In this document: piece after piece, positions 10,944 through 63,209 of the stretch
Layout: each line of letters begins with the position of its first letter
How positions within the stretch are numbered: the first letter of the stretch is position 1
Virus record (IMG/VR): IMGVR_UViG_3300037258_000046
Coordinates: 1 to 64,000 of that record
DNA length: 64,000 bases
DNA from: a virus
Strand: one strand, 5' to 3'
Position numbers and translations under genes: made by a program
The notes under the pieces: generated by a model
Told to the model about the DNA's origin: nothing
The model's input: only the letters and a program-made list of their open reading frames with translations
Database searches by the model: none

Positions 10944-10986
10944 CGCTGCCTCCTCTAGGTCGCGGGTTGCGCGGCGCAGCGTAGCA
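10944..10986 (-). promoter_or_regulatory. early-type promoter/leader TGC-TACGCT-N7-GCAACCCG-SD
   Basis: -10 10978-83, box 10963-70. Confidence 0.7.
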
Positions 10987-11730
10987 CTACACGCCGCTGA
11001 GCGCTCGCAGCGCAACCGCGCCGTCGCCGCGCAGCTCGACGTGGCGTCCCGGCCCGAGCAGCGTCGCCACAACGTCCGCGACGTCCTCGCGGTCAGCCTC
11101 AAGCTGCGTCGCCAGCTCAGCCTCCGTCATCGGCCCGCCACGGATCGCCGCGAGGATCTCGCCCTCCAGCCGCCGCAACCGTGCGGCGCGCTGATTGCCC
11201 ATCCCGCCGTTCGTCACACCGTTGCGCTCACGCTCGATCCGGTCCCGATCAGCCGTGATCCAATACCGGGTCGCAGCGGTCTTGCCCTCCGTCGTCACGA
11301 CCGACCTGTCGCGAAGCTCCTGGAGCGCCTTCGTCAGCCCACCCGAGCCCATCAGCTCACCCGCGTGCTCAAGCAGCGTCCGGAAGCTCGCGGGCTGATG
11401 CTCACGCACGAGCTGCTCGACCTTGTCGCGGCGCTCCTGCGTCAGCGCGTCCTGCTCGTCCGTCGACAGCGGCGAGCGCCTGCGCGTCACCGTCGAGCGC
11501 AACGGCGGCAACGCGAGCCCTGTCCCGCGCGTAGCCGTGTCCTGCGACGACGGCGCCGCATCCGACTGCACGTCATGCCGTGCCGCGGGCGCCGGAGCGG
11601 GTGACAGCACCTCGTACGCCGCGCGCAGCTTCTCCAGATGCCCGTCGAGCGCTTGCACCCGCTCGATCGCCAGCTCGCGCTTCTCTTCCGTCTCGGCGAT
11701 CTCCGCCGCCAAAGCCTCCACCGCGCCCAT
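10987..11730 (-). CDS. coiled-coil plus tandem winged-HTH protein
   Basis: N-terminal coiled coil; C-terminal GPMTEAELATQLEADREDV wHTH-like segment. Confidence 0.6.
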   Translation of the reverse strand: MGAVEALAAEIAETEEKRELAIERVQALDGHLEKLRAAYEVLSPAPAPAARHDVQSDAAPSSQDTATRGTGLALPPLRSTVTRRRSPLSTDEQDALTQERRDKVEQLVREHQPASFRTLLEHAGELMGSGGLTKALQELRDRSVVTTEGKTAATRYWITADRDRIERERNGVTNGGMGNQRAARLRRLEGEILAAIRGGPMTEAELATQLEADREDVADVVATLLGPGRHVELRGDGAVALRALSGV

Positions 11731-11774
11731 CGACCCGCCTCCTCGTCCACCGTCGGATTGCGCGACGCAACGTA

Positions 11775-12059
11775 TCAGCGCACAACGACAGTGCGCTTGC
11801 GCTCCGCGCCACACCGACGGCACTTGTCCAGCTCCACGAAGTAGCCCGGATGCGGACGCCGCATCAGCGCCACGATCCGCCAGTCATGGAACCCCGGCGG
11901 GCACTCCGGCGACGTCGCATTGAGCAGCGCGCTCACCCCCGCACCCGCGACAGCGACAGCGACAGCGAAGATCACGGCCTCGTTGTTCCACGTCGCCGAC
12001 AGGATCAGCACCGCGACCATCGTCGCTGCCAGCACGATCAGGCCAGCCCACCCTCGCAT
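11775..12059 (-). CDS. 2-TM membrane protein with C-terminal Cys/His motif
   Basis: Two hydrophobic helices; CPPGFHDW...CRRC; TAGGCT -10 is 6 nt upstream. Confidence 0.55.
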   Translation of the reverse strand: MRGWAGLIVLAATMVAVLILSATWNNEAVIFAVAVAVAGAGVSALLNATSPECPPGFHDWRIVALMRRPHPGYFVELDKCRRCGAERKRTVVVR

Positions 12060-12164
12060 GCCGGGAGCCTACAACGCGCGAAGGCGCCTCTTGTCCAGAG
12101 ACGCCCTCGCTGACACCGGCTCCGCCGGGGTCGATCGCGCCACCATCGTGTCACGCGCCCCGGA

Positions 12165-12204
12165 CGCAAAGAGAGCCGCCCGCGTGCTCGCGCGGACGGC
12201 TCCC
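12165..12204 (-). terminator. intrinsic terminator after the collagen-like gene
   Basis: GGGAGCCGTCCGCG...CGCGGGCGGCTCTC followed by TTTG. Confidence 0.6.
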
Positions 12205-12230
12205 TGAGTGTCTGAGACGACGCCTACAGC

Positions 12231-13208
12231 TTAGCCGTCGATGTTGCCCGTGCCCCCGTTGGCACCGCTCGGCGTGTTGCTATCGACCCACGACTCGTTC
12301 GCGTTCGCGTTCGAGTGATAGACGAAATCGTAGTTGTCGAGCGCGTACGTCGAGCCCGGGAAGTACGCCGCCTCGAACGCCGCGTTGCCCGCCTCGGCGC
12401 TAGACCCGCTCGTCGTGTGAGCATCGCACGCCGAGCAGCTCGCGACCGGATCGAAGTCCGCAGACTCGCCAGCAGCAGGCGCCGGAACGACCCACGACTC
12501 CGTGCCGTAGAACGTGCCAGTCACTCCACCGACCTGCGGCGGCCCCGGGCACGTCCCGGGATTCGGCTCGTCCACCGACGCGATCGTCGTGAACGTGCCC
12601 GTGATCAGCTCCGACACGTCGTAGCTGCCGTCCGGCAACGGGTTGACCTGGAAGGTCCGGCTGTAGCTGTCGTTCGCCCACGCGTTGCCACAGTCGCCGC
12701 TATCCGGCCCCGAGTTGCTCGCGTAGGTGTAGGTGAACGCGCCGTTGCTTCCCGGCGTGCCAGCGGGCCCCTGCGGGCCCTCAGCGCCGTCCGAGCCGTT
12801 GAAGCCACGCGGACCCTGCTCGCCCTGAACGCCCTGCGGTCCCTGAGCGCCCTGCGCGCCGGTAGCGCCAGTGTCGCCCTTGATGCCGTTCGCGTCCACG
12901 CCAGCCACGCCCTGCGGGCCCTGCGGGCCCTGCGGCCCGACGGCGCCCTGCGGACCAGCCGGGCCCTGCGGCCCGGGAGCACCCGTCGCACCCGTCAGAC
13001 CTGTAGCGCCCGTGTCGCCCTTCGGGCCCTGAATGCCGACCGTGATCGCGTTGCCCTCGAACTTCTTGAGCACGCTCGGCGCGACCTGCGACGTCGACGT
13101 GATCAGGTAGTGGTGCTTCTTCTTGCCCGCGGCCAGCGCCGCGCCTGTACAACCGAACGCCACGACGGCCACAGCCGCCAGCAGCGTCAGGATCTTTGAA
13201 ACTCGCAT
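12231..13208 (-). CDS. exported collagen-like (Gly-X-Y) protein
   Basis: Signal peptide, ~30 GXY triplets, Cys-containing C-terminal domain. Confidence 0.85.
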
Positions 13209-13262
13209 CAGACCTGCTCCTTGTTCGGGTTGCCCTGCCTAGTAATGCGACACACTGTAGCA
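13209..13262 (-). promoter_or_regulatory. early-type promoter/leader (TGC-TACAGT; box 13226-33)
   Basis: -10 13254-59; box displaced by an extra 13 nt; AAGGAG SD. Confidence 0.65.
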
Positions 13263-13264
13263 GC

Positions 13265-13489: not shown

Positions 13490-13491
13490 GA

Positions 13492-16979: not shown

Positions 16980-17415
16980 CGTCGACCTCCTCCGGGTTCG
17001 GCGGATTGTCGGCGCTGATGCCCTCGCCGCCCTCAGTGCCCGATCCCGCCGTCGACGTCATCAGCTCCTCGCCCGCAGGAACGATCTCCACCTCGCCGTC
17101 GGCCTGCTCGTTCACGACCGACACGATCCCGCTCGCCGTGATCGCCTCGTACTCGACTCTTTCGCCGTGCGCCTGACGCACGCCTCGCACGACGATCGCC
17201 CACCGCGTCGTGTGCTGCCGCAGCCCTTGCGTCTTGAGTCGATCGAGCGGAAGCGGCTCCGGCCGGTACACGAGCAGCATCGCGCGCTCGTTGTTCTCGC
17301 CCGTCTCGACCGCCGCATGCCCGATCAGCTTGCACGGCCTGCCGAGCTGCTCCTGGAGCTGCCCCATCGCGCTCTCAGCGTCAGCCTTCAACGCTGCCGC
17401 CTGCTCCTTCGTCAT
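16966..17415 (-). CDS. hypothetical protein
   Basis: GAGGAGG RBS after a GCAACCCG leader. Confidence 0.7.
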   Translation of the reverse strand: MTKEQAAALKADAESAMGQLQEQLGRPCKLIGHAAVETGENNERAMLLVYRPEPLPLDRLKTQGLRQHTTRWAIVVRGVRQAHGERVEYEAITASGIVSVVNEQADGEVEIVPAGEELMTSTAGSGTEGGEGISADNPPNPEEVDGGSE

Positions 17416-17457
17416 CGCATCCTCCTCAGTCGTCGGGTTGCGCGGCAGACTGTAGCA
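17416..17457 (-). promoter_or_regulatory. early-type promoter/leader TGC-TACAGT-N7-GCAACCCG-SD
   Basis: -10 17449-54, box 17434-41. Confidence 0.75.
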
Positions 17458-17485: not shown

Positions 17486-18058
17486 CTAGCGCGCTGCTCG
17501 GGCTGTACTGATCGACCGCACGTTGTCCGGCTGCTCCGGCAAATGCCGCCTCACGACGTCGTGGATCTTCGCCAACGTCTCCTCGCCCACGCCGTCCTTC
17601 TCCATCACGTCGAGCACCTCGCGCACGATCACGTTGAAGTCGGCCTCCGCACGCCAGCGCGTCAGATTGCGCGGCAGCTTCCCGATCGCCTGTAGCAGCG
17701 TCATGCGCTCAGCGTCGACCTCGCGCATCTCGCGCATCGCGCCGACCGCAGCCGACGGGTGCACATCGCGATTGGCCTGCCAGAACTCGTCCAGCTCCTC
17801 AAGCATCCGCTCGCGCAGCGCGATCGCGTCCTCGACCACCTCGTTCGGCACGACCGGCGCCGCGAGCTGCTCGCCGTCGCGCAGATAGCGCTGCGCCGTG
17901 TCCTCGCTGATGCCCAGCTCTTTCGCGATCTGCCGCCACGTCATCGGGCGCGAGCGGCCACGCGCATCGACGCGCGCGCGCATCTCCGCGATCTCGCGAG
18001 CGAGCTTCACGCGCCGGTAGAGAACTCCCCCCCGTGCCGCCGCAACCGTTGCGGCCAT
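17486..18058 (-). CDS. HTH DNA-binding protein, candidate terminase small subunit
   Basis: MTWRQIAKELGISEDTAQRYL HTH followed by helical region; TerS role is inference. Confidence 0.55.
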   Translation of the reverse strand: MAATVAAARGGVLYRRVKLAREIAEMRARVDARGRSRPMTWRQIAKELGISEDTAQRYLRDGEQLAAPVVPNEVVEDAIALRERMLEELDEFWQANRDVHPSAAVGAMREMREVDAERMTLLQAIGKLPRNLTRWRAEADFNVIVREVLDVMEKDGVGEETLAKIHDVVRRHLPEQPDNVRSISTARAAR

Positions 18059-19884: not shown

Positions 19885-20636
19885 CAGAGCGCCGCCATCA
19901 CGCTGCGCCGCGTCGCCTTCTTCGCGACGTCGGCCCACACGTGGAAAGCGTTGTCGTAGCCCTTAGAGAACCGGCCGACCACCGTTGCGTCGTAGGCGGC
20001 GCGCCATGCGTCGGTCCCGTTGATCGTCGCCGTCACGTCGAGCCCGAACGCGTCTACCAGCTCGTCAACCTTGAGCGCCAGCGAGTGCGCGCGCGGCACC
20101 TTCGCCAGCTCCTTCTCCAGCTTGGCAGCCCCGCGTGCTGCCTTGCGCGCCTCGACCTCGGCGCGCGAGTGAGCCTTCCGCTGCTCCGTCGTCATCTGCG
20201 CGACCGGCGCCGTCGGATAGCAGACCGTGCACGCCGTCATCGCGATCTCGGCGATGATCTCCGCCTCGCTCTTGCCCGACAGCCACGTCTGCCACGTAAA
20301 GCTCGTATCCCACCGGCAGGTCGAGCAGTCCATCGTCCGGTGCACGTGGCCGCCGTGAGCGGTGCAGAAGAACGCGCGCTCCCAGCCGCCGCGGCGATCG
20401 AACTCTGCGTTGAGGGGAGCCATCTGCTCGCGCAGCTCCGCGAGCTTCGCGGCGTGCTCTTCGAGCCGTGCTGTGCGCTCCGCCAGCTCGCGCTCGCTCT
20501 CGGCGCGCCACGGCATCCGCGGCTTGCTGTCGGCTGCCTGCCATGCGCGTCGCTGCTGGACCTTCCCGTGCAGCTCCGCGAGCTGCTCGTCGATCTCGGG
20601 AGGGGTCTGCTCTGTGATCGGTGTCGTGGTGGTCAT
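19884..20636 (-). CDS. conserved actinophage early protein, Zn-binding (HVHRTMDCSTC...CTVCYP)
   Basis: ATG 20636 after leader and AAGGAG. Confidence 0.75.
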   Translation of the reverse strand: MTTTTPITEQTPPEIDEQLAELHGKVQQRRAWQAADSKPRMPWRAESERELAERTARLEEHAAKLAELREQMAPLNAEFDRRGGWERAFFCTAHGGHVHRTMDCSTCRWDTSFTWQTWLSGKSEAEIIAEIAMTACTVCYPTAPVAQMTTEQRKAHSRAEVEARKAARGAAKLEKELAKVPRAHSLALKVDELVDAFGLDVTATINGTDAWRAAYDATVVGRFSKGYDNAFHVWADVAKKATRRSVMAAL

Positions 20637-20699
20637 CGTCTGCTCCTTAGTTCCGGGTTGCGTTGCAAACTGTAGCACAACGCGGCCCGGACGTGTCAA
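20637..20699 (-). promoter_or_regulatory. strong early promoter TTGACA-N19-TACAGT-N7-GCAACCCG-SD
   Basis: -35 20694-99, -10 20669-74, box 20654-61. Confidence 0.8.
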
Positions 20700-20935
20700 G
20701 CAGATATCGGCGCTCCGTCGCCGTACTCCTCGATCGACTCGCGCACGAGATCCCCCCACGTCTGCCGTCGCGTCCAGCGCAGCATCCAGCCGTTCGGGAA
20801 CTGCGGCGATGTCACGCGCAGCTCGCGGATCGGGTCGCGGTAGCCCGCGCGCTCCAGGATCGCCGCGACGGCCTCCAGCGCCTCGTCCAGCTCGGCGTGA
20901 TGCTCGGCGAGAACGTCCTGCATGAAGTAGGCCAT
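20696..20935 (-). CDS. hypothetical protein
   Basis: TGATG-coupled. Confidence 0.55.
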   Translation of the reverse strand: MAYFMQDVLAEHHAELDEALEAVAAILERAGYRDPIRELRVTSPQFPNGWMLRWTRRQTWGDLVRESIEEYGDGAPISA

Positions 20936-21195: not shown

Positions 21196-21196
21196 G

Positions 21197-21508
21197 TCAG
21201 ATCCCCAGCGCGCGGCGCTCGGCCTGCCAGAAGCGGCAGATGGGCCCGGTGTACTTCTGCTCCGTGTAGAGCGGCGAGTCGACGATCGCGCGCACCGCCT
21301 CGTTGCCCTTCGCCAGATGGTTGTCGATCGCGCGGCGCGTCGCTGCCGCGTTGCGGCCGGTCAGCGAGCCGTTGCCCATGCGCCGGTCGATCGACGTCAG
21401 TCCGTTCGTCGCGCGCTGGAGCTGCCCTTCGAGCCGCAGCATCTCGCGGACGTCCTGGAAGCTCGGCTCGCTCGTCTGTGTCTGTGTCTGTGTCTGTGTC
21501 GTGGTCAT
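21197..21508 (-). CDS. hypothetical protein with N-terminal (TQ)4 encoded by an ACACAG microsatellite
   Basis: ATG 21508 after leader; (TGTCTG)n at ~21474-21500. Confidence 0.65.
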   Translation of the reverse strand: MTTTQTQTQTQTSEPSFQDVREMLRLEGQLQRATNGLTSIDRRMGNGSLTGRNAAATRRAIDNHLAKGNEAVRAIVDSPLYTEQKYTGPICRFWQAERRALGI

Positions 21509-21563
21509 CGTCTGCTCCTGTCGTCGTCGGGTTGCGTTGCAAACTGTAGCACAACGCAACCCG
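21509..21563 (-). promoter_or_regulatory. early-type promoter with a 12-bp inverted repeat flanking the -10
   Basis: cgggttgcgttg 21528-39 / caacgcaacccg 21552-63; -10 21543-48. Confidence 0.75.
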
Positions 21564-21968: not shown

Positions 21969-22439
21969 TCAGAACTCGTCGTGGTAGCAGGATGCGCGGT
22001 AGGCGGCTTCGCCGACCTCGTCGCAATACACGTTCGTGCGCTCGCCCTTGACCCACACCTTCGAGCCGCGCTTGAAGACGCGCCGGACGGTGTAGGTGTC
22101 ATCGAAGGCTAGGTCGACGGTCACGCTGTAGCCGTGAGCGACCGGGAGAGTAATCCCCGTCTCGCGGACGCCGACGCGGCCGCCGCTGATGCCGAGCACG
22201 TTCATGCGCCCGATCTGCGCGACGATCGTCTTGGCGTCGGCGCGATCGTCGAACTCCTGCGCCGCCGCCTCCTCCGTCTCGCCGACGAACTTCTTGTGGA
22301 TCGCCAGCGCGATGTCCTTCGTGTCGATCCCGGTCTGCTCGCTCGCGACGGCCAGCGCTTGCTCGACCGTGGCGCCCGCGTTGCGGCGGCTGTAGAAGTG
22401 ATCGACTGCGGCGGGGAGAAGGTTGCTAGTGATGGTCAT
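21969..22439 (-). CDS. conserved actinophage early protein (QIGRMNVLGISGG...DDTYTVRR)
   Basis: ATG 22439 after leader. Confidence 0.7.
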   Translation of the reverse strand: MTITSNLLPAAVDHFYSRRNAGATVEQALAVASEQTGIDTKDIALAIHKKFVGETEEAAAQEFDDRADAKTIVAQIGRMNVLGISGGRVGVRETGITLPVAHGYSVTVDLAFDDTYTVRRVFKRGSKVWVKGERTNVYCDEVGEAAYRASCYHDEF

Positions 22440-22508
22440 GTCGGGCTCCTTGTCGTTCGTTCCGGGTTGCGTTGCAAACTGTAGCACATCTCCCGGCCGA
22501 GCTGTCAA
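22440..22508 (-). promoter_or_regulatory. strong early promoter TTGACA-N19-TACAGT-N7-GCAACCCG-SD
   Basis: -35 22503-08, -10 22478-83, box 22463-70. Confidence 0.8.
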
Positions 22509-22568
22509 GAGTCGCTCGACGAATTGCGGGCGCGCCGCAGACCATCGCGACGCGCCCGCTTCGCTACC

Positions 22569-24310: not shown

Positions 24311-24543
24311 GGGAGCGGCCACCGCGCGATCACGCCGTCGGCCTCTTCGTCCGGTCGGTTGTAGTAGCGCGTCAGCATCGCCTTCACGTCCGCATCGGTC
24401 CAGCGCCGCTCGCCGCGGATCTCGTCCTCGGCGTCCAGGATCGCGTCGATCAGGGGATCGGCGAGCGTGCCGAGCCCCGGTGCGATGCCGTCGAGTCGAT
24501 CTCGCCACGCCGCACGCCGCGGCGCGTCGGTTGCTTGTGCCAT
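24307..24543 (-). CDS. hypothetical protein
   Basis: GAGGAGG RBS after leader. Confidence 0.7.
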   Translation of the reverse strand: MAQATDAPRRAAWRDRLDGIAPGLGTLADPLIDAILDAEDEIRGERRWTDADVKAMLTRYYNRPDEEADGVIARWPLP

Positions 24544-24582
24544 CGTCGCCTCCTCAGTCGGGTTGCGCGACGGAAGGTAGCA
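24544..24582 (-). promoter_or_regulatory. early-type promoter/leader TGC-TACCTT-N7-GCAACCCG-SD
   Basis: -10 24574-79, box 24559-66; lies inside the upstream ORF's 3' end. Confidence 0.7.
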
Positions 24583-25920: not shown

Positions 25921-26789
25921 GCGACCACCGCGACTTCCAGCAGCTCCGCCTTCGAGGGGCGCATGAAGAACCCGAAGCTCTCGTCGTCGCGGCTGGCCTC
26001 GACCGTCGCCGTGAACGTCACGCGCGAGCCCTTCTCGACGCCCGGGATCTCCTGATACATGCCGTCTGCGTCGTGGAAGCGCGACATCTCGATCGCGGCC
26101 GGAACGCTCCCCCACACCTTGAAGCCGCGGTCGTCACGGACGAGCATCTTGTGCTGCTCGCCGTAGTCGCTCGTCTGCCACTTCTCCGAGAGCACCTCGC
26201 CCGTGATCACGATGCGACCCTCGACCACCGGCGCCGTCGGCTCCGGCGCCACGTCCTCGGCGAGCAGGTCGCGAGCCATCGTGCGCATGATCGCCGCGAC
26301 GTAGCGGTCGCTCGTCGAGCCGTAGTTGCGGACCTTCTGCGCGAACTTGTGGCAGAACTCGGACGGGTGATCAGCGGCGAAGCCGAACGCCACCTCGCGG
26401 TCCGGGTCGATCGCGAACCACCGCAGCCGGATCGTCTTGATGCGCTGCGCTGCGCGGTCAAGCTCGGCGCGCTTGCGCATCGCGTGGAACTCGCCGGTCG
26501 CGCGCTCGAAGCGATTGTCTAGGCACGTCTCGCCGACGCGGATCAGCTCGCCCGTCGGCAGGTATTCCATCACCGCGTAGTAGCGGATGCGCGCGCCGCA
26601 GTGATAGCAGCTCCCCGCGCTGTAGTTCTCGCCGAACTTCTTGCCGTCTGCCGTCGCCGCGCGAATCGTCGGGTCGATGTAGGCAGGCTCGCCGTCAGCG
26701 CCGCCGAAGTCGCCGCAGCCGACGAACTCGTAATCCTCAGTGACTAGGTTCTTTGGGGCGTGGACGTCGGTGCGAATGTTGCGTGTCAT
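25917..26789 (-). CDS. Zn-finger plus C-terminal OB-fold protein
   Basis: CYHCG...VGETC; RIVITGEVLSEK...KMLVRDDRGFKVWGSVP...GSRVTFTATV. Confidence 0.7.
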   Translation of the reverse strand: MTRNIRTDVHAPKNLVTEDYEFVGCGDFGGADGEPAYIDPTIRAATADGKKFGENYSAGSCYHCGARIRYYAVMEYLPTGELIRVGETCLDNRFERATGEFHAMRKRAELDRAAQRIKTIRLRWFAIDPDREVAFGFAADHPSEFCHKFAQKVRNYGSTSDRYVAAIMRTMARDLLAEDVAPEPTAPVVEGRIVITGEVLSEKWQTSDYGEQHKMLVRDDRGFKVWGSVPAAIEMSRFHDADGMYQEIPGVEKGSRVTFTATVEASRDDESFGFFMRPSKAELLEVAVVA

Positions 26790-27117
26790 CGTGGGCTCCA
26801 GTCGTCTCGGGTTGCGCTGCAAACTGTAGCACAACCGTCGGCGTGTGTGTCAAGTCCTCGATCGCCCCGCAGAGCGGGCACGGCGCGCGCTCTCTCCCGC
26901 CCTCCGGGTTGCGCATCCGGGCCCCACACTCGCACTCCCGCCACGCATGCCCGGCGTACACGTACGCGCCGCGCACGAGCCGATACAGGGCCCTCCCGGG
27001 CCCCGGCCGGTCGAAGCACATGCCGCCCGAGCGCCGCTCGCCAATCCAGACGAACGGCGCCCGAGCGCACGCATCAAGCCCGTCGTGCGGGCCGCCCACT
27101 ACAGCGACCCGCGGCAC
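26737..27117 (-). CDS. hypothetical Zn-finger protein (VGGPHDG; CECG; CPLCG)
   Basis: Starts right after the upstream stop; the C-terminus runs through the next promoter. Confidence 0.45.
   Translation of the reverse strand: MPRVAVVGGPHDGLDACARAPFVWIGERRSGGMCFDRPGPGRALYRLVRGAYVYAGHAWRECECGARMRNPEGGRERAPCPLCGAIEDLTHTPTVVLQFAAQPETTGAHDDTQHSHRRPRPKEPSH
26790..26853 (-). promoter_or_regulatory. strong early promoter TTGACA-N19-TACAGT-N7-GCAACCCG-SD
   Basis: -35 26848-53, -10 26823-28, box 26808-15. Confidence 0.8.
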
Positions 27118-28359: not shown

Positions 28360-28515
28360 CTACTCGCCGTCGACGTCCTCGCCTTGCTCGCCCTGCTCGG
28401 CGTCGCCCTGCTCCGTCTCCGGCGTCTCCGGCGTCTCGGCGGGCTCCTGCGTGATCTCCACATCGCCGTCGCCGTGCTGCTCGACGTGCACTCCGTCTCG
28501 CTGCTCTTCCGTCAT
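28360..28515 (-). CDS. 51-aa highly acidic protein
   Basis: MTEEQRDGVHVEQHGDGDVEITQEPAETPETPETEQGDAEQGEQGEDVDGE; preceded by TCAACCCG-ACG-AAGGAG. Confidence 0.65.
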   Translation of the reverse strand: MTEEQRDGVHVEQHGDGDVEITQEPAETPETPETEQGDAEQGEQGEDVDGE

Positions 28516-28563
28516 CGCCTGCTCCTTCGTCGGGTTGACCGCCCGGGAGACTACCCGGACGGT

Positions 28564-29358
28564 CTACGCCTCTACCGGCTCGGCTTCGCGCGGCGCCAGC
28601 CCGGCCGCAGCAGCAGCAGCGCCGAACTGCGCCAGATGCAGCTCTTCGACGTACGCCAGCCGCGCGTCGACGGCCGTGTCCGATGCCGTGTCGACCGCGG
28701 GCGCGTCGCCGCGCTTGCGCGCGAACGCGTTGACCAGCTCGATCGCGGTCCCGACCGCCTGCTCCGTGACCGCGACGTCGTCGAGACGCACGTCGGCGCC
28801 GGGCTCGGCGAAGTCGTTGAAGAACGCCAGCTCGCACAGCATCAGCGCGTTCCCGCCGCGGCGCGGCCGCAGCACGCCGAGCTTCTCGCGCGACGTCGAG
28901 ATCCACTTCACGACCGCCACGCGGTCGGTCTTGTGCAGCGCTTGCGTGAGCAGCTTGAGCGCCGGGCCCGTGCCGTTGCGCGGCTGAACCCAATACGAGC
29001 CGACGATGCGCTCCGTCGGCACCGATCGGTAGTCGATCGTCTCCAGCACCTCCATCGCCGGATGCGCCTCGACCGACGCCTCCGTGATCGCCGCGAGCCG
29101 CTCAGGGTCGAGCTTGATCACGCGGCTGTCGCTGACGCGCACCGCCTTGTAGACGCCATCTGCGGGCGTCCGCGAGCCGCCGCCGCCGCCGCCCATGGTC
29201 GACGTGACCGGCACCGCCTCGCCCGTCTCCGGGTCGACCTCGTCGCGAACGTACTCCGTCTTCGGCTCACGGCTGTGCACCGTCTTCGCGAACGAAACCT
29301 CAAGCTGAAAGTCGCCAAATGCGATCGCCGTGTTCCGTGCTCCACGTCCTGCCATCAC
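28564..29358 (-). CDS. ku: Ku-like DNA end-binding protein
   Basis: AIAFGDFQLEVSF...YKAVRVSDSRVIKLD...SYWVQP..GTGPALKLLTQALHKTDRVAVVK...REKLGVLRP...LMLCELAF. Confidence 0.8.
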   Translation of the reverse strand: MMAGRGARNTAIAFGDFQLEVSFAKTVHSREPKTEYVRDEVDPETGEAVPVTSTMGGGGGGSRTPADGVYKAVRVSDSRVIKLDPERLAAITEASVEAHPAMEVLETIDYRSVPTERIVGSYWVQPRNGTGPALKLLTQALHKTDRVAVVKWISTSREKLGVLRPRRGGNALMLCELAFFNDFAEPGADVRLDDVAVTEQAVGTAIELVNAFARKRGDAPAVDTASDTAVDARLAYVEELHLAQFGAAAAAAGLAPREAEPVEA

Positions 29359-29396
29359 TGCCTCCTGTCTGTCGGGTTGCGCGACAGACTGTAGCA
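29359..29396 (-). promoter_or_regulatory. early-type promoter/leader TGC-TACAGT-N7-GCAACCCG-SD
   Basis: -10 29388-93, box 29373-80. Confidence 0.75.
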
Positions 29397-30663: not shown

Positions 30664-30751
30664 GCCGCATCACCTTCGACGCGAGCCACATCGCCACGAA
30701 CGGCGCAGCGGCCAGCGCTCCGTACCACCATGTCGAGAAGTCTCTGTGCAT
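30656..30751 (-). CDS. 31-aa single-TM peptide
   Basis: MHRDFSTWWYGALAAAPFVAMWLASKVMRRG after leader and AAGGAG. Confidence 0.6.
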   Translation of the reverse strand: MHRDFSTWWYGALAAAPFVAMWLASKVMRRG

Positions 30752-30790
30752 CGCCAGCTCCTTAGTCGGGTTGCGCGACACACTGTAGCA
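30752..30790 (-). promoter_or_regulatory. early-type promoter/leader TGC-TACAGT-N7-GCAACCCG-SD
   Basis: -10 30782-87, box 30767-74. Confidence 0.75.
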
Positions 30791-33072: not shown

Positions 33073-33528
33073 TCAGCCCGTCGCGGACGCCGGGTCTGCC
33101 GCTGCGTCGGCGATCGCCTCGACGAACGTCGGGCGAAGCACCTGCCGGATCTTGTAGCCGACGATCCGGCCCTCCTTGCGCTTCACCACGACCTGCGCCG
33201 CCGTCGCGATCTCGTAGCTGACCATCACGCGGCCCGGACTGTCCGGGTCGATCATGCCCGCGCTGACCGGCACCTCCGCCGACATCAGCGACGCCGTGAC
33301 CTCGACCGGCAGGCCCGGCTTGATCAGGTTCTTGAGCGTCTTCTTTGGATCGCCCTCGACCGTCCCGAGCGGGAACAGCTCCTCCTGCTCGTCGTCGTCG
33401 GCCATCTCCGCGATCGACTTGCCGTCAGCCGCCGCGGCTTCTGCGGCTTCGCGGTCTTGGCGCTCCTGCCGCCGCCGCGCTATCTCGTTGTCCGCTGATG
33501 TTGCCTCGTTCTCGTCTTCCACCGTCAT
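33073..33528 (-). CDS. hypothetical protein
   Basis: Preceded by GCAACCCG-AGGAGG (33544-51). Confidence 0.7.
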   Translation of the reverse strand: MTVEDENEATSADNEIARRRQERQDREAAEAAAADGKSIAEMADDDEQEELFPLGTVEGDPKKTLKNLIKPGLPVEVTASLMSAEVPVSAGMIDPDSPGRVMVSYEIATAAQVVVKRKEGRIVGYKIRQVLRPTFVEAIADAAADPASATG

Positions 33529-33754
33529 CGGTGTCTTCCTCCTCGGGTTGCTTGAGATGGACGCGCACCACGGGCCCGAGCCCGGGCACCACGTTCGCCG
33601 CGACCGATCCGACAGCCTCGATCAGCAGCGCCTTCCTACCTTCCTGCAACAGCTCGCCTTCTGTGACGATCACCACGTCGATGATCGCCACGTCGAGCGG
33701 TTCACTGTACGCCTCGCCGGGCGCGAGAGTGATCCTCAGCTCACCCGTCGACAT
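33425..33754 (-). CDS. hypothetical protein (overlaps next gene)
   Basis: MSTGELRITLAPGE...; the C-terminal overlap makes it uncertain. Confidence 0.4.
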   Translation of the reverse strand: MSTGELRITLAPGEAYSEPLDVAIIDVVIVTEGELLQEGRKALLIEAVGSVAANVVPGLGPVVRVHLKQPEEEDTDDGGRRERGNISGQRDSAAAAGAPRPRSRRSRGG

Positions 33755-36010: not shown

Positions 36011-37210
36011 CTAGAAGTCGACTGAATCGTCGCCGCTGCTACGCGGACGCCACCCGAGCGGCACGCCGAGCGTCGTGAGCTGCTGATCGAGCCAATTCAG
36101 CTCGTCGACCAGCTCGGCGTCCTGCTTCTCGTTCGCGTTCTCGCGCAGCTCGTCGATCGCCGTCAGGCGCTCTAGGAACGGGTGCACCTGCGCACGCCAC
36201 GTCGCGTCGCTCTCCCACCGCGCCTGCGCCGCAGTCCAGTCCGCGCCCGTCTCCTCGCCCGCCTCGGGCTCCACGTCGCCGGAGACGGCCTCCTGCGCGC
36301 CCTCGACGCCGTTCTCGGCCATCGCAGCCTCAGCGCTCGGCGACACATCGTCAGCCACGACGACGGCATCCTCCGGCTCGTTCTCGGCAAGCCACTGCTC
36401 CAGCTCGCGCTTCACCTGAGCGAGCTGCACCGGAGTCGCGCCCTGCGTCCTCGCGCGCAGCACGCCCTCCGTGAACGCCGTCGGGTCCAAGTCGCGGATG
36501 CGCTCATACAGCGGAGCGATCTCCGGATCGAGCGGCTGAAAGTCACCGACGTCGGCGGCGCCAAGGCCACCGCTTGCGCCCGGCAGGTCGAGCCCAGCGC
36601 CCAGCTCGTCGAAGGGCACTGGCCCGGACACGCCATAGGTGATTCGCGTGATGTAGCTCGTCGCGGCTTTGACCATCATCGCGTGCAGAAATGACCATGC
36701 CGACCTCGCAGCGTCTTTGGCGTACTCCGCCCTCGGGGCGTAGAAGTAGCGATCCGGCTTGCCCTGACGGCGCAGGATCGCGTACGCGCCCACGACCTCG
36801 CCCCGCTTGCTCGGGTGGTCGTACTCGTGCACGATCGTGCGCTTGCCGTTCTCGGCGCGCCGAACGCGAAAGACGTCGTTCTCGCACACGACGTCGGCGT
36901 CGACGTCGATGAAGTGCTCGTCGCGGCGCGCGATCTTGAGGTAGCCATCACGGCCGACCATGACCGCGAGCCTCCCCGGCGCGCCGTTCTTGCCCGGCAT
37001 CTGCGCCAGCCAAATCTCGTTCAGCAGCGGATTCAGGTCGAGCGCCGCCGCCTCTTCGAGATAGCGCTGGAGCAGCGCCGTGTCGTTGATCGCGGGCGCG
37101 CCAACCGTGGCGGCAATCGTCGAGACGAGCGCCGGACTAAAAGTGCGCTTCGCCGCGGCGGAGAGACGGACTACGTTCGTGCCCGGAGCGGGCGGAGATT
37201 GCGTTGGCAT
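36011..37210 (-). CDS. recT: RecT/Bet single-strand annealing protein
   Basis: LNPLLNEIW...MVGRDGYLKIA...VVCENDVF...VVGAYA..R...MMVKAA. Confidence 0.85.
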   Translation of the reverse strand: MPTQSPPAPGTNVVRLSAAAKRTFSPALVSTIAATVGAPAINDTALLQRYLEEAAALDLNPLLNEIWLAQMPGKNGAPGRLAVMVGRDGYLKIARRDEHFIDVDADVVCENDVFRVRRAENGKRTIVHEYDHPSKRGEVVGAYAILRRQGKPDRYFYAPRAEYAKDAARSAWSFLHAMMVKAATSYITRITYGVSGPVPFDELGAGLDLPGASGGLGAADVGDFQPLDPEIAPLYERIRDLDPTAFTEGVLRARTQGATPVQLAQVKRELEQWLAENEPEDAVVVADDVSPSAEAAMAENGVEGAQEAVSGDVEPEAGEETGADWTAAQARWESDATWRAQVHPFLERLTAIDELRENANEKQDAELVDELNWLDQQLTTLGVPLGWRPRSSGDDSVDF

Positions 37211-37249
37211 CGTGGACTCCGTTCGGGTTGCAGTGCGAGCACCCTAGCA
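37211..37249 (-). promoter_or_regulatory. early-type promoter/leader TGC-TAGGGT-N9-GCAACCCG-SD
   Basis: -10 37241-46, box 37224-31. Confidence 0.6.
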
Positions 37250-37261
37250 GCCGTGCCAAAC

Positions 37262-37303
37262 GAAAAAACGGGCCGCCCGGGGAAGGTGTTCCGGGCGGCC
37301 CGT
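37262..37303 (-). terminator. intrinsic terminator
   Basis: 13-bp stem ACGGGCCGCCCGG/CCGGGCGGCCCGT followed by a T tract. Confidence 0.85.
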
Positions 37304-37361
37304 GAGTGCAGCACCCCGACAATGACCAGTGCAACCCGGACGTAGGAGGGGGCGCCGCTTC
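37262..37361 (-). ncRNA. candidate ~100-nt antisense sRNA complementary to early-mRNA leaders
   Basis: GCGGC-TATGAT -10 (37368-73); 10-bp stem 37349-58/37308-17 enclosing CUCCUACGUCCGGGUUGC; terminator. Confidence 0.5.
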
Positions 37362-37379
37362 CTACGCATCATAGCCGCT

Positions 37380-58766: not shown

Positions 58767-60076
58767 TACTCAGCGCCTCCCCGCGCCGGAGCGGGCTCAC
58801 CCGTCAGGCGCTTCGTGTCGACTCCGGCAGACCGCAGGCCAGTCGCGAAGCTCGCGCGACCGCGGGAACGAGTTCCGTGCGCCGGAGGAGTTCCCCCGTC
58901 GCCCGTGGTGGCCGCACCCTGCCCGCGCACGCGGGTGGGCTGCGCCTCCGCGAGCTTCAAGCGCTCGCGTGCGATGTCGGCGTCCAGAGCCTCCTGGAGC
59001 ACCTTGAGCGCAGGCTTCGTGACCGCACCCTCGCCGTCGCGCTCGGCGACGACATCGAGAGCGGCGCTCGGACGCGCCTCGCCCGACTCCTCGATCGAGA
59101 GCCGGTAGCGAAGGTTCAGATCGTCCTGGAAGGTGGGCGGCAGCTTCGACTCCGAGATGACGCGCTTGGCCTCGGCGTGCAGGTCACGAATCTCGACCTG
59201 ACGACGCGACTCCGAGCGGATCTCCGTCTCCAGCGACTCGCGGATCTCGGCGGTCTGCGCCTTCACCTTCGTCTCGACGATCGTGTCGATGGCAGTCGCG
59301 AACTCCGTGGACGCGAGTGCCTCTTCGAGCGTGATGGGCTTGGCGTCGTCGGTCACGAGTGGCTCCGGTTCAGGCGGCTCAGGGGGAGCTGCGGCTTCGA
59401 GCAGATGCGGCCGATGCTCACGGAGGTGAAAGACGAGATCATCGTCTCCCAGCCCCGACAACGTGCGCTCTGCATCACCATGTTCACGATCATAGTCGGC
59501 CTCTGCGAGTGCAAGTACATGCCCGCCCGCTCCGGCGCGCGTCACGAAGTCGACGCTCGACTCGTCCGCGCCATCGAAGCCCTCGACCAGCTCGGACGGC
59601 TTGCCGCGGTAGTTCGCGCGGCGCACCCCGGTCGCGAAAGTGCGGACGCTCAGCTTCACCGCGTTGGGCACCGCCTCGATCAGCTCGCGCATCTCGCGCG
59701 TCGGCATAGCGCGGCCGATGACCGCGCCCTTCTCGTGGCCAAGCTCCGTGTCCTGCGGCGTCTCGAAGTCCGGATCCCAGCTCGTCTCGCGGATCTCGCC
59801 GCGCAGATCGCCGGTCGGTCGCGGCAGCCCGCCGCGCAGCTTCTTGATCGCCGGGCTCTCGTGGTTGTCGAACATCGGCAACCCCTTGAAGAACGAGTGC
59901 TGCGACTCCAGCAGCTCGCGAGGATAGACGCGCTTCCCGCGGCCGCGCGCCTGCCCCGGCCGGATCAGCACCACGTTCACGGTGCCGTCCTCGTTGAACG
60001 GGCCGCCGCCGTCCGTGCTCTCCTGGAGCAGCAGGGGGATCGTCTCAACGACGTCCGGCGTGCGAGTTCCGGTCAC
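58766..60076 (-). CDS. prohead protease-scaffold fusion
   Basis: IRPG..RGKRVYPRELL, MFDNH, LSV, SVDFVTRAGAGG; acidic coiled-coil C-terminus. Confidence 0.8.
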   Translation of the reverse strand: MTGTRTPDVVETIPLLLQESTDGGGPFNEDGTVNVVLIRPGQARGRGKRVYPRELLESQHSFFKGLPMFDNHESPAIKKLRGGLPRPTGDLRGEIRETSWDPDFETPQDTELGHEKGAVIGRAMPTREMRELIEAVPNAVKLSVRTFATGVRRANYRGKPSELVEGFDGADESSVDFVTRAGAGGHVLALAEADYDREHGDAERTLSGLGDDDLVFHLREHRPHLLEAAAPPEPPEPEPLVTDDAKPITLEEALASTEFATAIDTIVETKVKAQTAEIRESLETEIRSESRRQVEIRDLHAEAKRVISESKLPPTFQDDLNLRYRLSIEESGEARPSAALDVVAERDGEGAVTKPALKVLQEALDADIARERLKLAEAQPTRVRGQGAATTGDGGTPPAHGTRSRGRASFATGLRSAGVDTKRLTGEPAPARGGAE

Positions 60077-60082
60077 ACGGTC

Positions 60083-60098: not shown

Positions 60099-60113
60099 CC
60101 GGACGTTCATCAA

Positions 60114-60383
60114 TCAGTGCTTTGCGTGCCCGTTCGTCGCCTTGTCGCGATCGGCGCGCCACAGCTCGATGATCTCCCGCCGCGCCTGCGGGTCACCGCG
60201 CAGCTCCGGCGCCGACGCGTCAACCCACGGCGGCAGCGGAGCGTTCGTCTTGTGGCGCCCGCGCGCCACGTAGTCGAGGTTCCGCCACATCTGCATCAGG
60301 AACCCCGCGGCGATCGAGCACGCCATGCCGAACGCAGCGAGCGCCAGCACGGCGAGCACGATCAGAAGCAGCAGCGCGATCAT
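60114..60383 (-). CDS. single-TM membrane protein
   Basis: Hydrophobic N-terminus; TGATG-coupled. Confidence 0.6.
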   Translation of the reverse strand: MIALLLLIVLAVLALAAFGMACSIAAGFLMQMWRNLDYVARGRHKTNAPLPPWVDASAPELRGDPQARREIIELWRADRDKATNGHAKH

Positions 60384-60637
60384 CAGAACGGCAGATCGTC
60401 GGCGTGGTCGACGATCGCGACGGCCGGGCGAATCACACGCACGAGCTTGTAGTCAGCGACCACCGCGCGAGCCTCGCGAATGCCCTCCGGCTCCGGGCCC
60501 TGCTCCCAGCTATGAACGGCCATCGCGTCGTACGGGTCGAAGCCCATCGACACCGCGCCCATGCCCACCTCGGCCGCGATCTCGCTCGCCTGCTCCTCCC
60601 ACTCCTCGATCGTGGTGAAGGCTTCATCTACGGTCAT
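60383..60637 (-). CDS. hypothetical acidic protein (ends DDLPF)
   Basis: ATG 60637 after leader. Confidence 0.65.
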   Translation of the reverse strand: MTVDEAFTTIEEWEEQASEIAAEVGMGAVSMGFDPYDAMAVHSWEQGPEPEGIREARAVVADYKLVRVIRPAVAIVDHADDLPF

Positions 60638-60683
60638 CGTCTGCTCCTGTCGGTCGGTTCGGGTTGCGCCGCAAACTGTAGCA
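60638..60683 (-). promoter_or_regulatory. early-type promoter/leader TGC-TACAGT-N7-GCAACCCG-SD
   Basis: -10 60675-80, box 60660-67. Confidence 0.75.
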
Positions 60684-60696
60684 CAACGCGAACCGC

Positions 60697-61737
60697 CTAT
60701 GCGTCCCCGTACGTCGACAGCACATACTCGGAGACTTCCCCCCAATTCTCAGTCGCGAGCGTCAACACCGTCCGCTGCTCCTCCTCCTCCTGCACCTTCT
60801 CCTGCCACTGATGCCCGTCACGCAGCAGCCCGATCTCAGTACGGATCAACCGGACTAGCGTCTGCGGGTCGAGCGCGTCCAGCTCCCATGAGCTGCTCCC
60901 GTAGCGCTTCACGTAGCCGTGGCCGCGCGAGTCCGACAGCTTCGCCGGGTTCGGCGGAGGGTTGTGCTCCTGGATCTGCTCCCAGGTCAACGCGATGCGC
61001 TTCACCTCCAGCTTCTCCCACAGCTCCGCCTTCATCGTGTCGACGTCGTCGCCGAGATCGCACAGATCCAAGTCGACCGACAGGAACCGCGCGAGCCGAT
61101 CTTCGATGTCGCGGGTCATGTCGATGCCCGACGGATCGTGGTCCCCGAGATGCAAGATCACGCACCGCTTGCCCTGCTCGATCTTCCCGCGCAACCGCTG
61201 CGCCGAAGACCAAATCTCCGATAGCGACGTGTACCCGCGGCACGACAGATAGGTGACGTCCTCGATCGGGCAGCTCCGCTCAAGCATCCCCACGAGCGCG
61301 TCCTTCTCGATCCACACCTCGACGTGAGTGTCCTGCGGCGCCCACTTGTCGATCGCGAACGCCTGCGCGGCCGCCTCGATCAGCTCCGTCGGCGAGTCCC
61401 AATGCGGCGGGCTCTCCGCCTTGCGCGTGCGGTCGACGATGTAGTCCCAATCGAGCTGCCCGGCCAGCCGCGCGTCGGCGACGATGTCGCCCAGCCACTT
61501 GTAGTTCGGCTCCGCGTTCTTCGTGCCGTTCTCGTCGCGAACCCACTTCCCCGCGGCCGTCTGCGACCACGTGCGCGCGTCCGGAAAGTAGTCGTGCGCG
61601 ACGAACTGGTAGTAGAGCTGCCGCAGCGTCAAGTCGTAGCGCTGCGCCGCGAACTCCGCGCATATCTGGCGGGCCCGAGCGATCACCCGCCGCGCCTCCG
61701 GCGGGAACGACTTCGACACGTACTGAATCTCAGGCAT
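60697..61737 (-). CDS. Topo VI-A/Spo11/JetD-like wHTH+TOPRIM protein
   Basis: LTLRQLYYQ, VEVWIEKDAL, RGYTS, ILHLGDHDPSG, WELDAL. Confidence 0.8.
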   Translation of the reverse strand: MPEIQYVSKSFPPEARRVIARARQICAEFAAQRYDLTLRQLYYQFVAHDYFPDARTWSQTAAGKWVRDENGTKNAEPNYKWLGDIVADARLAGQLDWDYIVDRTRKAESPPHWDSPTELIEAAAQAFAIDKWAPQDTHVEVWIEKDALVGMLERSCPIEDVTYLSCRGYTSLSEIWSSAQRLRGKIEQGKRCVILHLGDHDPSGIDMTRDIEDRLARFLSVDLDLCDLGDDVDTMKAELWEKLEVKRIALTWEQIQEHNPPPNPAKLSDSRGHGYVKRYGSSSWELDALDPQTLVRLIRTEIGLLRDGHQWQEKVQEEEEQRTVLTLATENWGEVSEYVLSTYGDA

Positions 61738-62116
61738 CACTACCTCCTCGCAGCTCGGCCGCCTTCGCCAAGTAGACCGCGGCCTCCTCCGGCGTGCGGC
61801 CCGCGACATTCTCCAGCGCCGCGATGCGACGCTCCCGCGGGAACCGCGCCAGCAGCGCGCTCACGTGATCGCGCAGATGCTCAAGCTGCCAGACGATCTC
61901 CTCCTCGTAGGCTTCGCGCGCCAGCGACGAGAACTCCGAGCCCTCCTCGAACAGAAGGTGCGCGAGCCGCATGATCGCTAGCGGAGCGTCTTCGAGCGCC
62001 TTCTGCGCGAGCCTCCAGCGTTCCGGCACCGGCTTCGTCGACCACGAGCCCGCACGCACCCGGCCGACGCCTTGGACGTAGGTCATCTTCGGCATCAGCG
62101 CCACAACCTTCGCCAC
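61730..62116 (-). CDS. hypothetical protein
   Basis: IAALENVAGRTPEEA motif. Confidence 0.55.
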   Translation of the reverse strand: MAKVVALMPKMTYVQGVGRVRAGSWSTKPVPERWRLAQKALEDAPLAIMRLAHLLFEEGSEFSSLAREAYEEEIVWQLEHLRDHVSALLARFPRERRIAALENVAGRTPEEAAVYLAKAAELRGGSDA

Positions 62117-62252
62117 ACGCCGACCTTGCCGAGCCCGCGCCCCACCGCGATGTTCTTCGCGCGCCGCGGCACGTTGCCCGTCCTGATCGCCCTGCCGGTC
62201 GCGCTCGCGCGCGCCGCCCGGTACAGCGTCCCCGTCACCGTGAACTTGCCCA

Positions 62253-62954
62253 TCACTGCACCTTCCTTTCAGCCGCGCGGCGGGCTGCCTGCCAGATCCG
62301 CGCGTCCATGTCGTAGGTTCGTCCGTCGTTGCGCACGCCGTCCAGCGCGCCCGGCCAAAGCTCTCTCGCGGCCCGCAGCAGCGTCACCCTGAACTGCGTG
62401 CCGTGGTGCTCGTGGTAGTTGCAGATCACATGGACCAGCTCGTGCAGGATCAGCTCTTGCGCGCGCTCCAGCGGCACCGTCGGCCCGAACCGCAGCACCA
62501 TCCGGTCGTACCACCACGCCCGCCCCGAGCACCCGCTGCCGATCGCCTTCGAGCGGATGATCTTCACCTCGGGCCGCCATGACGGCGGCTCCGGGTTGAC
62601 CAGCTCGTCGCGCGTCGCGGCCCACCGCTCGCGGATCTCCGGCAGCCGCATGCACCGCTCGATGAACGCGAAGACGTCCAGCTCGACGCGCTCGCCATCG
62701 GCCGCGACAGCCCACACGATCCATCGCTCGCGCTCGCGCTGACGTGCCGCCTTCTCCGCCGTCGCGCGCTTCTCGCTGCTGCGCAGCGCCGACGCGGCGC
62801 GCTTGCGCTCAAGCGACGGCGCCGTGCGCTTCACTAGACGGCCCTCCGCCTGCGAGCACGGCAAGCAGTAGCGCACCACCGCATCGGCGCGCGGACGCGT
62901 CGAGCCGAGCACACCCGGATGCTTGCCGTTCGGGCACTCCCACCGCACGCTCAC
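62253..62954 (-). CDS. SprT-like zinc metallopeptidase
   Basis: SGRAW...LILHELVH....HHGTQF. Confidence 0.7.
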   Translation of the reverse strand: MSVRWECPNGKHPGVLGSTRPRADAVVRYCLPCSQAEGRLVKRTAPSLERKRAASALRSSEKRATAEKAARQRERERWIVWAVAADGERVELDVFAFIERCMRLPEIRERWAATRDELVNPEPPSWRPEVKIIRSKAIGSGCSGRAWWYDRMVLRFGPTVPLERAQELILHELVHVICNYHEHHGTQFRVTLLRAARELWPGALDGVRNDGRTYDMDARIWQAARRAAERKVQ

Positions 62955-63169
62955 GTGACCGGCCCTCCCGCCTCGCGCGAGAACGACGCGAGCACGCGCG
63001 GCAGAAGCACCGTCTCCTCCGTCGCCTCGATCGTGAAGTCAGCCACGCCGCGCAGGCGTAGCTCCATCGCCAGCTTCTCGGCGATCACGGCAACGGCGCC
63101 CGCCGCCTCCTGCTCGCCGTCGTCCGCCTCCGTAGCGCGGACCTCAATCGTGTACTTCGCTGTCGCCAT
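62951..63169 (-). CDS. hypothetical protein
   Basis: AAGGAG RBS after leader. Confidence 0.65.
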   Translation of the reverse strand: MATAKYTIEVRATEADDGEQEAAGAVAVIAEKLAMELRLRGVADFTIEATEETVLLPRVLASFSREAGGPVT

Positions 63170-63209
63170 CGTTCACTCCTTCGTTCGGGTTGCGCTACAC
63201 AGTGTAGCA
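63170..63209 (-). promoter_or_regulatory. early-type promoter/leader TGC-TACACT-N7-GCAACCCG-SD
   Basis: -10 63201-06, box 63186-93. Confidence 0.75.

Follow-up and report, generated by a model that had tools for sequence, protein, structure and literature searches.

A short sequence, GCAACCCG (here called the box), recurs on one strand of a viral genome fragment directly in front of start codons, and the same phage appears to encode a small RNA that may read it as a tag. The fragment, hereafter the window, comprises bases 1-64000 of the 74,208-bp IMG/VR record IMGVR_UViG_3300037258_000046, which is linear and about 70% complete. The boxes belong to cassettes with a common plan: an extended -10 element (TGnTAnnnT), a gap of 7 nt (11/15), the box, 0-12 nt, a Shine-Dalgarno sequence (SD) and ATG. 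The original prediction had interpreted the box as a regulon tag, phage-wide and with either an RNA or a protein as its reader. For the RNA a candidate was found. It is a syntenic locus with a predicted loop that is the reverse complement of box plus SD, and its homologues in related phages mirror the tags of their own genomes. On this comparative evidence an RNA is the most likely reader of the tag. We consider it on balance probable that the tags are addresses for a phage-encoded anti-leader small RNA (sRNA) which blocks ribosome binding.

A candidate anti-tag RNA gene behind the tail fibre

The candidate anti-leader sRNA gene (37263..37373, minus strand) is situated directly 3' of the tail-fibre stop codon (37380). 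A -10 element, TATGAT, at 37373-37368 predicts a start at about 37361 and an RNA of about 99 nt (37361-37263). A basal 10-bp stem (37358-37349 with 37317-37308) is predicted to enclose a 31-nt loop that carries an anti-SD, CCUCCU (37349-37344), and an anti-box, CGGGUUGC (37338-37331). The loop sequence CCUCCU-ACGUC-CGGGUUGC is the reverse complement of box, 5 nt and AGGAGG. A terminator stem (37301-37270) and a U-run (37268-37263) form a strong intrinsic terminator of the RNA gene. The pattern CTCC-N1-12-CGGGTTGC had this locus as its sole minus-strand match, at an expectation of 0.14 per window for both strands. A consensus promoter scan of 36900-37700 reported no canonical promoter, and a search of Rfam yielded no family at gathering score anywhere in the window.

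The same layout was present in 14 related contigs (G004, G007, G010, G018, G009, G022 and eight more IMG/VR contigs). There, a series of elements extends over about 90 nt: the stop codon of the tail-fibre ortholog (..IKT*), a -10 element (TATCCT or TATGCT), a variable stem, the anti-tag and a terminator. The apex of the relatives' RNA is an invariant CUCCUCGGUCGGGAU(U), the reverse complement of their own tag, in a 4-bp hairpin with the loop CGGUC. Among three close members, compensatory changes were found in 7 of 27 pairs. MAFFT and RNAalifold, applied to 12 RNA homologues, misaligned the 3' strand and missed the basal stem; per-sequence folds and a comparison of cognate with non-cognate flanks were used instead. 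In this alignment-free test the duplexes of cognate 5' and 3' flanks had a mean energy of -21.6 kcal/mol compared with -14.1 +/- 4.1 kcal/mol for non-cognate combinations. For every member, the window phage included, the cognate partner ranked 1-3 of 10.

The window RNA is linked to this family by its position. The fibre protein of G018 is 32% identical to that of the window over 400 aa, up to the last residues and just before the G018 RNA, and a covariance model from three close relatives placed its best match in the window genome at the RNA locus. Therefore, the window locus is syntenic and has the same architecture. It shares the place behind the fibre stop codon with a -10 and a terminator, and a basal stem which encloses the reverse complement of its own phage's tag. 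The window RNA loop matches the tag of its own phage, not that of the relatives. Judged from the sequences, loop and tag of this genome have changed in concert. Between related phages, tag and mirror image thus vary jointly.

The tag as a probable leader element

All 15 boxes listed in the original prediction were recovered at their coordinates, all on the minus strand and all in front of an SD and an ATG; the copy at 28531 is TCAACCCG, as had been claimed. The sequence GCAACCCG occurred 24 times in the window as against 2.76 +/- 1.53 in dinucleotide shuffles, and 0/100 shuffles reached 24. TACAGT-N7-GCAACCCG with up to 2 mismatches had 12 occurrences (0.14 expected), and TGCTACAGT-N7-box with up to one mismatch was found at nine sites. 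The extended -10 exactly 7 nt before the box was confirmed by a TANNNT hexamer in 11 sites (63186, 60660, 30767, 29373, 26808, 24559, 22463, 21528, 20654, 17434 and 10963). The gap is 9 nt at 37224 and 28531 and 20 nt at 13226, and 33544 is without a -10; TANNNT is located 7-9 nt 5' of the box in 13/17 sites. Between box and SD there are 0-12 nt, and from the end of the box to the ATG 13-23 nt. Two further cassettes are located in the full record outside the window, at 72364 and 71060. Together with one variant, GCAATCCG, this brings the total to 18. All 17 canonical box genes start with ATG compared with 61 of 105 other genes (58%; Fisher p = 2.8e-4). The leaders are U-poor and contain repeated GAC/GAA units. 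The driven genes are non-structural: RecT, Ku, a helix-turn-helix regulator and many small genes. The absence of cassettes from the head and tail operons also held, as no box exists between 60660 and 37224, where the capsid, sheath, tape measure, baseplate and fibre genes are located. A copy of TCAACCCG at 40559 is a chance match inside a gene (40367-40816, minus strand), where it encodes part of a C-V-N-P-x-H-L motif; by eye this motif may be read as HNH-type.

All cassettes are on the minus strand and are described here from high to low coordinates. The cassette TGCTACACT-N7-GCAACCCG-N5-AGGAG-N6-ATG (63167..63209) heads a 72-aa gene (62951-63169), and TGCTACAGT-N7-box-N11-AGGAG-ATG (60635..60683) an 84-aa gene (60383-60637). 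RecT (36011-37210) is preceded by TGCTAGGGT-N9-box-N3-GGAG-ATG (37208..37249). In front of a 151-aa gene the box is fused directly to AGGAGG-N9-ATG, with no -10 within 30 nt (33526..33551). TGA-gc-TGCTACAGT-N7-box (30749..30790) heads a 31-codon open reading frame and then the HTH_17 gene (30403-30663), and TAG-c-TGCTACAGT-N7-box (29353..29396) heads Ku (28564-29355). A 51-aa gene is headed by TAGTCT-N9-TCAACCCG-N4-AGGAG-ATG, which is located 3' of a GC hairpin (28513..28553). TTGACA-N19-TACAGT-N7-box (26787..26856) precedes a 290-aa gene, TGCTACCTT-N7-box (24541..24582) a 78-aa gene, and TTGACA-N19-TACAGT-N7-GCAACCCGGA both a 156-aa gene (22437..22513) and a 250-aa gene (20634..20704). Between the latter two, TGCTACAGT-N7-box with an inverted repeat around the -10 (21506..21563) heads a 103-aa gene; TGCTACAGT-N7-box at 17413..17457 heads a 149-aa gene. 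The collagen-repeat protein (12231-13208) has TGA-gc-TGCTACAGT with the box 13 nt farther from the -10 (a 20-nt gap) and 4 nt from the SD (13206..13262). The variant cassette, additional to the first 15, reads TACGTT-N7-GCAATCCG-...-GAGGAGG-ATG (11728..11774; the part from TACGTT to the box at 11754-11774) and heads a 247-aa gene (10987-11730). TAG/TGCTACGCT-N7-box (10941..10986) heads a 177-aa gene. The stop codon that had been noted to abut TGC was seen at the four sites 30767, 29373, 13226 and 10963.

In their promoter part the cassettes look like sigma-70-type extended -10 promoters for the host RNA polymerase. TGn and TANNNT, a feature of such promoters, are present. A -35 hexamer at 16-18 bp is absent; TTGACA occurs in three cassettes only (20669-20704, 22478-22513 and 26823-26856), each time 19 bp before TACAGT and not 17 +/- 1. 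Eight leaderless-type genes lack an SD and carry TANNNT 6-7 nt ahead of the start codon (5540-5818, 9064-9366, 11775-12059, 18058-18495, 24796-25098, 40820-41395, 55889-56590 and 63338-63682); those at 55889 and 40820 belong to the structural module. Applied to the N7 gap, this spacing would place the transcript starts of the cassettes approximately on the first few bases of the box. Transcription start sites near the box, as originally claimed, are thus a prediction from leaderless-gene spacing. A perfect 12-bp inverted repeat (CGGGTTGCGTTG / CAACGCAACCCG) with a 12-bp spacer flanks the -10 of the 21528 promoter (21536-21563) and looks operator-like; the 20654 promoter has a 10/12 version of it.

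In its behaviour the box resembles a transcribed leader element, not a part of the core promoter, because it keeps by the SD when insertions part box and -10. Action at the RNA level had been suggested from copies that stay next to the SD. Such a position beside the SD was seen at 13226 and, in relatives, in G005, G004, G007 and G017. In L021, a 9-kb contig with a capsid protein 82% identical to that of the window, the ortholog of the 63186 cassette retains TGCTACACT, N7, GCAACCCGA and the SD, while the flanks have 66-69% DNA identity. In the distant relatives (capsids 43-49% identical) leaders consist of TANNNT, 7-15 nt, (G/T/C)AACCCGA, few bases, AGGAGG and ATG, with a genome-specific flavour of the -10, e.g. 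TACCTTTGGTCGCG in G005. RecT is tag-led in both the window phage and G005 at 26% protein identity, and Ku in both the window phage and G017 at 31%. Searching 23 related records for CAACCCGA-N1-10-GGAG returned 19 matches, and the reversed pattern 0. The core CCGACC(G/A)AGGAG is located 4-7 nt before the start codon in G002, G004, G007, G010, G015, G017 and G018. Exact CCGACCGAGGAG is present in 13-23 copies per genome in G004, G007, G010, G015 and G018 as against 0 in controls; with 2 substitutions allowed, the tag of the larger relatives reaches up to 38 copies per genome as against 0-3 in reversed controls. A -10 and a small GC hairpin frequently stand upstream of these tags. We take the window leaders (AACCCGAC..AGGAG) to be a variant of the relatives' motif in which the conserved block is shifted to the 5' end and the spacer is variable. 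By sequence comparison, then, the box represents this phage's version of a start-associated tag common to a clade of uncultured high-GC myoviruses. Its retention in L021 and before the RecT and Ku orthologs argues that the tag is under selection.

Two side observations concern these cassettes. Between conserved flanks, L021 (2100-3900) differs from the window (60120-62350): L021 has other small genes there, one collagen-like, and no cassette, whereas in the window this stretch contains a topoisomerase-like gene together with the 60660 cassette. The cassette moves with exchangeable cargo. Tags of G004, G007, G018 and G002 (e.g. G007 17216, 30052 and 80248) have a -10 (TATCCT or TACAAT), GTAGGTG and a GC-rich hairpin upstream, an arrangement similar to the promoter-plus-inverted-repeat of the extended start-associated sequences (ESAS) of Cluster K phages.

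As far as tested, the tag is not a general host signal within the genomes searched. The promoter-plus-box pattern (19 specified bases) had 2 chance matches in 185,579 species, represented by one genome each, and the exact pattern had 11 single chance matches in IMG/VR. In 401 Actinomycetota genomes CAACCCGA-N1-6-AGGAG occurred about 1-2 times per genome, about 2.4-fold over the reversed control, a figure obtained by a hand count of the first 100 rows of the Actinomycetota listing; the conclusion from these 401 genomes is limited to Actinomycetota-type hosts. The tally includes 15 genomes flagged as unpublished (G144, G025, G198, G415, G250, G072, G263, G042, G360, G172, G106, G292, G342, G367 and G112). 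The matches in Actinomycetota ran at background density, and the clusters inspected as possible host-type leaders were nonribosomal peptide synthetase and MsrA coding sequence and were rejected.

Proposed mechanism, alternatives and known systems

We propose the following sequence of events. A very short leader would start at or near GCAACCCG and run directly into a strong SD and ATG. The sRNA would be made from its own -10, by read-through of the tail operon, or both, being placed between the tail-fibre stop and the operon terminator. Its 10-bp stem would present the 31-nt loop CCUCCU-N5-CGGGUUGC, in effect the anti-SD sequence of the ribosome itself, lengthened by a phage-specific anti-tag. 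In every tagged mRNA this loop would form 8-10 bp with the box and 5-6 bp with the SD, altogether 13-16 bp over two helices. Pairing would cover the ribosome-binding site, and the duplex might in addition become a substrate for ribonucleases. Production of the RNA, its pairing with the leaders and a repressive effect are all inferred. With the ribosome-binding sites of all tagged mRNAs occluded, the whole gene set would be turned down together. Because the RNA locus follows the last late gene and precedes the operon terminator, the anti-leader must be part of late transcripts whether or not the RNA's own promoter fires. The simplest reading then would be a late shut-off of non-structural genes, and the time when the late operon is active is the most plausible timing.

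Several observations weigh against this mechanism. The covariance-model match at the RNA locus is not significant alone (E = 0.25, 15.9 bits). No antisense copy was found in G005 and G003, which carry box-type leaders, and no exact one in G015, which has 13 tags. The candidate RNA of G017 is without homologues, and a search with the G017-type loop gave chance matches only. The same was true for a search with the G000-type loop; no close relative of the window RNA was found and its loop rests on one sequence. Predicted duplex energies separate tagged from untagged starts only modestly (-30.1 vs -23.5 +/- 4.2 kcal/mol), and a few untagged genes equal tagged ones. The plus strand of the inverted copy is weakly cassette-like (GACAAT-N7-box-N5-AGGAGG); therefore, the copy could be the relic of an inverted cassette. 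Lastly, the fixed N7 in 11 sites could mean a role at the DNA level. The G017 candidate itself is at 129139-129273 (plus strand), and its loop region CCUUGGUCGGG is complementary to the A-type tag of that genome (CCGACCAAGGAG). An antisense copy in L044/G008 was discarded, being inside a coding gene.

Some of these points would equally suit an element that acts in cis only. The box would then be part of an optimised expression cassette read by the host, as a promoter-escape sequence, an unstructured A/C-rich leader or a ribosome stand-by site, and the inverted copy would be unrelated, a relic or part of a terminator region. Every tagged gene indeed joins a near-consensus extended -10, a strong SD and ATG, the leaders are U-poor with GAC/GAA units, duplex energies discriminate targets weakly, and the box occurs in G005 and G003 without a detectable antisense copy. 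However, this leaves unexplained why 14 contigs retain, between -10 and terminator, a co-varying stem tipped by an invariant antisense version of their tag, and why the window copy matches its own diverged tag at a syntenic place. Further, the leader is not enriched at gene starts in the bacterial genomes searched. We regard an action in cis only as unlikely. Even more so, and in our view very improbable, is a translational enhancer that pairs with ribosomal RNA (rRNA). CAACCCGA could pair with the conserved 16S stretch UUCGGGUUGU (helix 16), an 8-nt perfect complement in actinobacterial 16S rRNA with -14.9 kcal/mol. Yet an 8-mer complement is expected in 1.5 kb at about 2% by chance, and the relatives' tag (CCGACCGAGGAG) does not have this complementarity. 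Moreover, the helix 16 strand is base-paired and is located at the mRNA entry side, away from the 5' untranslated region. In the 16S rRNA of Kocuria marina (L175) the box is the complement of UUCGGGUUGU at 462-470 and is sense-identical to GCGCAACCC at 1133-1139, near 1100; both resemblances are probably coincidence.

A DNA operator would account for the geometry of the promoters. The box at +1 to +9 would be an asymmetric, stoperator-like site at which a phage DNA-binding protein, most obviously the HTH_17 protein (30403-30663), blocks initiation or elongation. In 11 sites the spacing from -10 to box is constant and the predicted start falls within the box, the HTH_17 gene is box-led and conserved in six tag-bearing relatives, and the promoter at 21528 has the perfect 12-bp inverted repeat around its -10. 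Against this, the box follows the SD when it is parted from the -10, the conserved core of the relatives contains the SD and is located 4-7 nt from the ATG, and there are no sites in or between structural genes. The phyletic distribution of HTH_17 carries no information, since that of RecT, the exonuclease and RusA is the same. We consider an operator rather improbable, and a use of the same RNA and tags for immunity slightly more so. In that case RNA from a prophage or an established phage would silence early genes of an incoming or resident phage, in the manner of P1 c4 or P4 CI RNA, with no late shut-off. Among the relatives, G002 is classified as a provirus, a separate promoter is predicted for the RNA, and antisense immunity RNAs which cover ribosome-binding sites are known. 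On the other hand, the 74 kb of this only about 70% complete record yielded no integrase, partition gene or repressor, and in every member the RNA occupies the 3' end of the late operon.

Both components of the proposed tag-and-RNA system have precedents, and the window system is a variant of kinds already known, start-associated tags and sRNAs with anti-SD seeds. The start-associated sequences (SAS) of Cluster K mycobacteriophages, to which the original prediction had drawn an analogy, have a 13-bp consensus, GGGATAGGAGCCC, with up to 2 mismatches (PMC3203893). The analogy held: the tags precede non-structural genes only, have one orientation and an ATG bias, and differ in sequence. In both systems a short asymmetric tag in 11-19 copies of one orientation is located just 5' of non-structural start codons, with a bias to ATG (80/93 SAS vs 17/17 here) and conserved flanks without 16S rRNA pairing. 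As with ESAS, a subset of the sites is linked to a putative promoter. The consensus GGGATAGGAGCCC is not matched; the tag is GCAACCCG here and CCGACCGAGGAG in the relatives. SAS are positioned 3-9 bp from the start and include the SD, whereas the window box is located 5' of the SD, 13-23 nt from the ATG. The relatives' CCGACCGAGGAG, in turn, covers the SD and has the 3-9 bp placement. Given the other sequence and the other position relative to the SD, the window tag is not a member of the Cluster K SAS family. The window phage is an unrelated uncultured myovirus, and a conserved antisense RNA gene is definable in its group. SAS and ESAS were reported in 2011 (PMC3203893), and their function was described as unknown in 2024 (PMC11373665) and in 2025 (PMC12699233). 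Four K1 phages have a single inverted SAS away from gene starts (PMC3203893). In Mycobacterium phage Anaya (L221) we located it at 59870-59882 on the main transcribed strand, in the 385-bp non-coding gp96-gp97 gap after a terminator-like hairpin. This inverted SAS could be an anti-SAS RNA, which we mention as a lead, not as a result.

On the RNA side, the αr14/NfeR1 sRNAs (Rfam RF02344) use anti-SD seeds to occlude the ribosome-binding sites of many mRNAs (PMC10746234). As in these sRNAs, a CCUCC-type seed is predicted to be unpaired on a sequence-variable stem. The window RNA has a weak full-length match to RF02344 (31.6 bits, below the gathering score of 58.8 bits). αr14 has three hairpins, each with an unpaired CCUCCUCCC, whereas the window RNA has one anti-SD in its apical loop and only CCUUCC in the terminator loop; also, it is phage-encoded and located at the end of the tail operon. 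Its seed carries a phage-specific anti-tag as an extension and would thereby single out the tagged genes of its own phage. Phage antisense RNAs known to cover ribosome-binding sites include P22 sar and lambda OOP. A further one is c4 of P1/P7 (PMC12197685), and the antisense RNAs listed in a phage sRNA review are all of the single-target kind, like c4 (PMC12197685). With all of them the window RNA would share the principle that complementary bases presented in a loop of a phage RNA block translation of phage genes. However, they act at one or two sites in a single operon, compared with 18 dispersed genes here and about 20-38 in the relatives. Cluster A stoperators are repressor DNA sites in both genome arms, also between structural genes. 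They resemble the tags as many asymmetric copies in short intergenic gaps, co-oriented with transcription. In contrast, the window tags are tied to the SD, and none is located between 60660 and 37224. The stoperators of the L5 gp71 system are cited in PMC3203893.

Tentatively, and with less confidence than for the window phage, we extend the proposal to start-associated tags across the actinophage-like viruses, perhaps with the Cluster K SAS among them. They might all be addresses for phage anti-tag RNAs, with tag and anti-tag co-evolving in each lineage as a private RNA switch or an RNA immunity over the non-structural set. Start-associated phage tags have been known since 2011 without a mechanism, and here a cheap and specific test is at hand: one small RNA, one tag and compensatory mutations. 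If true, a single RNA of about 100 nt would control the translation of about 18 dispersed genes in this phage and of 20-38 in relatives. Phages would then have a new level of temporal control or immunity, and a ready orthogonal tag-and-RNA pair would be available for gene control in high-GC bacteria.

The phage and its gene content

The source is an uncultured high-GC myovirus (GC content 69%), likely with an actinobacterial host. A gene call based on GC content at third codon positions resulted in 123 genes, 122 of them on the minus strand, and 7.2% of the DNA is non-coding. No tRNA genes were detected in the window. Neither nucleotide nor tape-measure searches identified a relative among cultured phages; the best capsid match there (50,697 records) is 25% identical. 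Capsid and Ku as single-protein queries retrieved no related loci, and the loci of the relatives were recovered by capsid alignments. Capsid P0002, on a 70-kb contig, is 71% identical. An open frame of >1229 aa at 2-3688 (minus strand) runs off the contig end, distant from the tail module, and is without a PHROG match.

The annotated structural genes comprise the portal (64758-66851), the gpT-like major capsid protein (57238-58380), the tail sheath (52328-53836), the tape measure (46370-50587, 1405 aa), the baseplate wedge (39171-40370) and the last fibre-like protein (37380-38495, minus strand). The latter is the final gene of the late module, has the C-terminus ..FIIKA* and served as the synteny anchor for the RNA locus. 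Other annotated genes are RecT (36011-37210), a PD-(D/E)XK nuclease (34656-35984), a DnaC-like ATPase (31422-32177), RusA (30793-31425), the HTH_17 protein, Ku, the collagen-repeat protein and a gpA-type large terminase (7277-9043). An Rv2525c-like glycoside hydrolase is encoded at 69744-70334.

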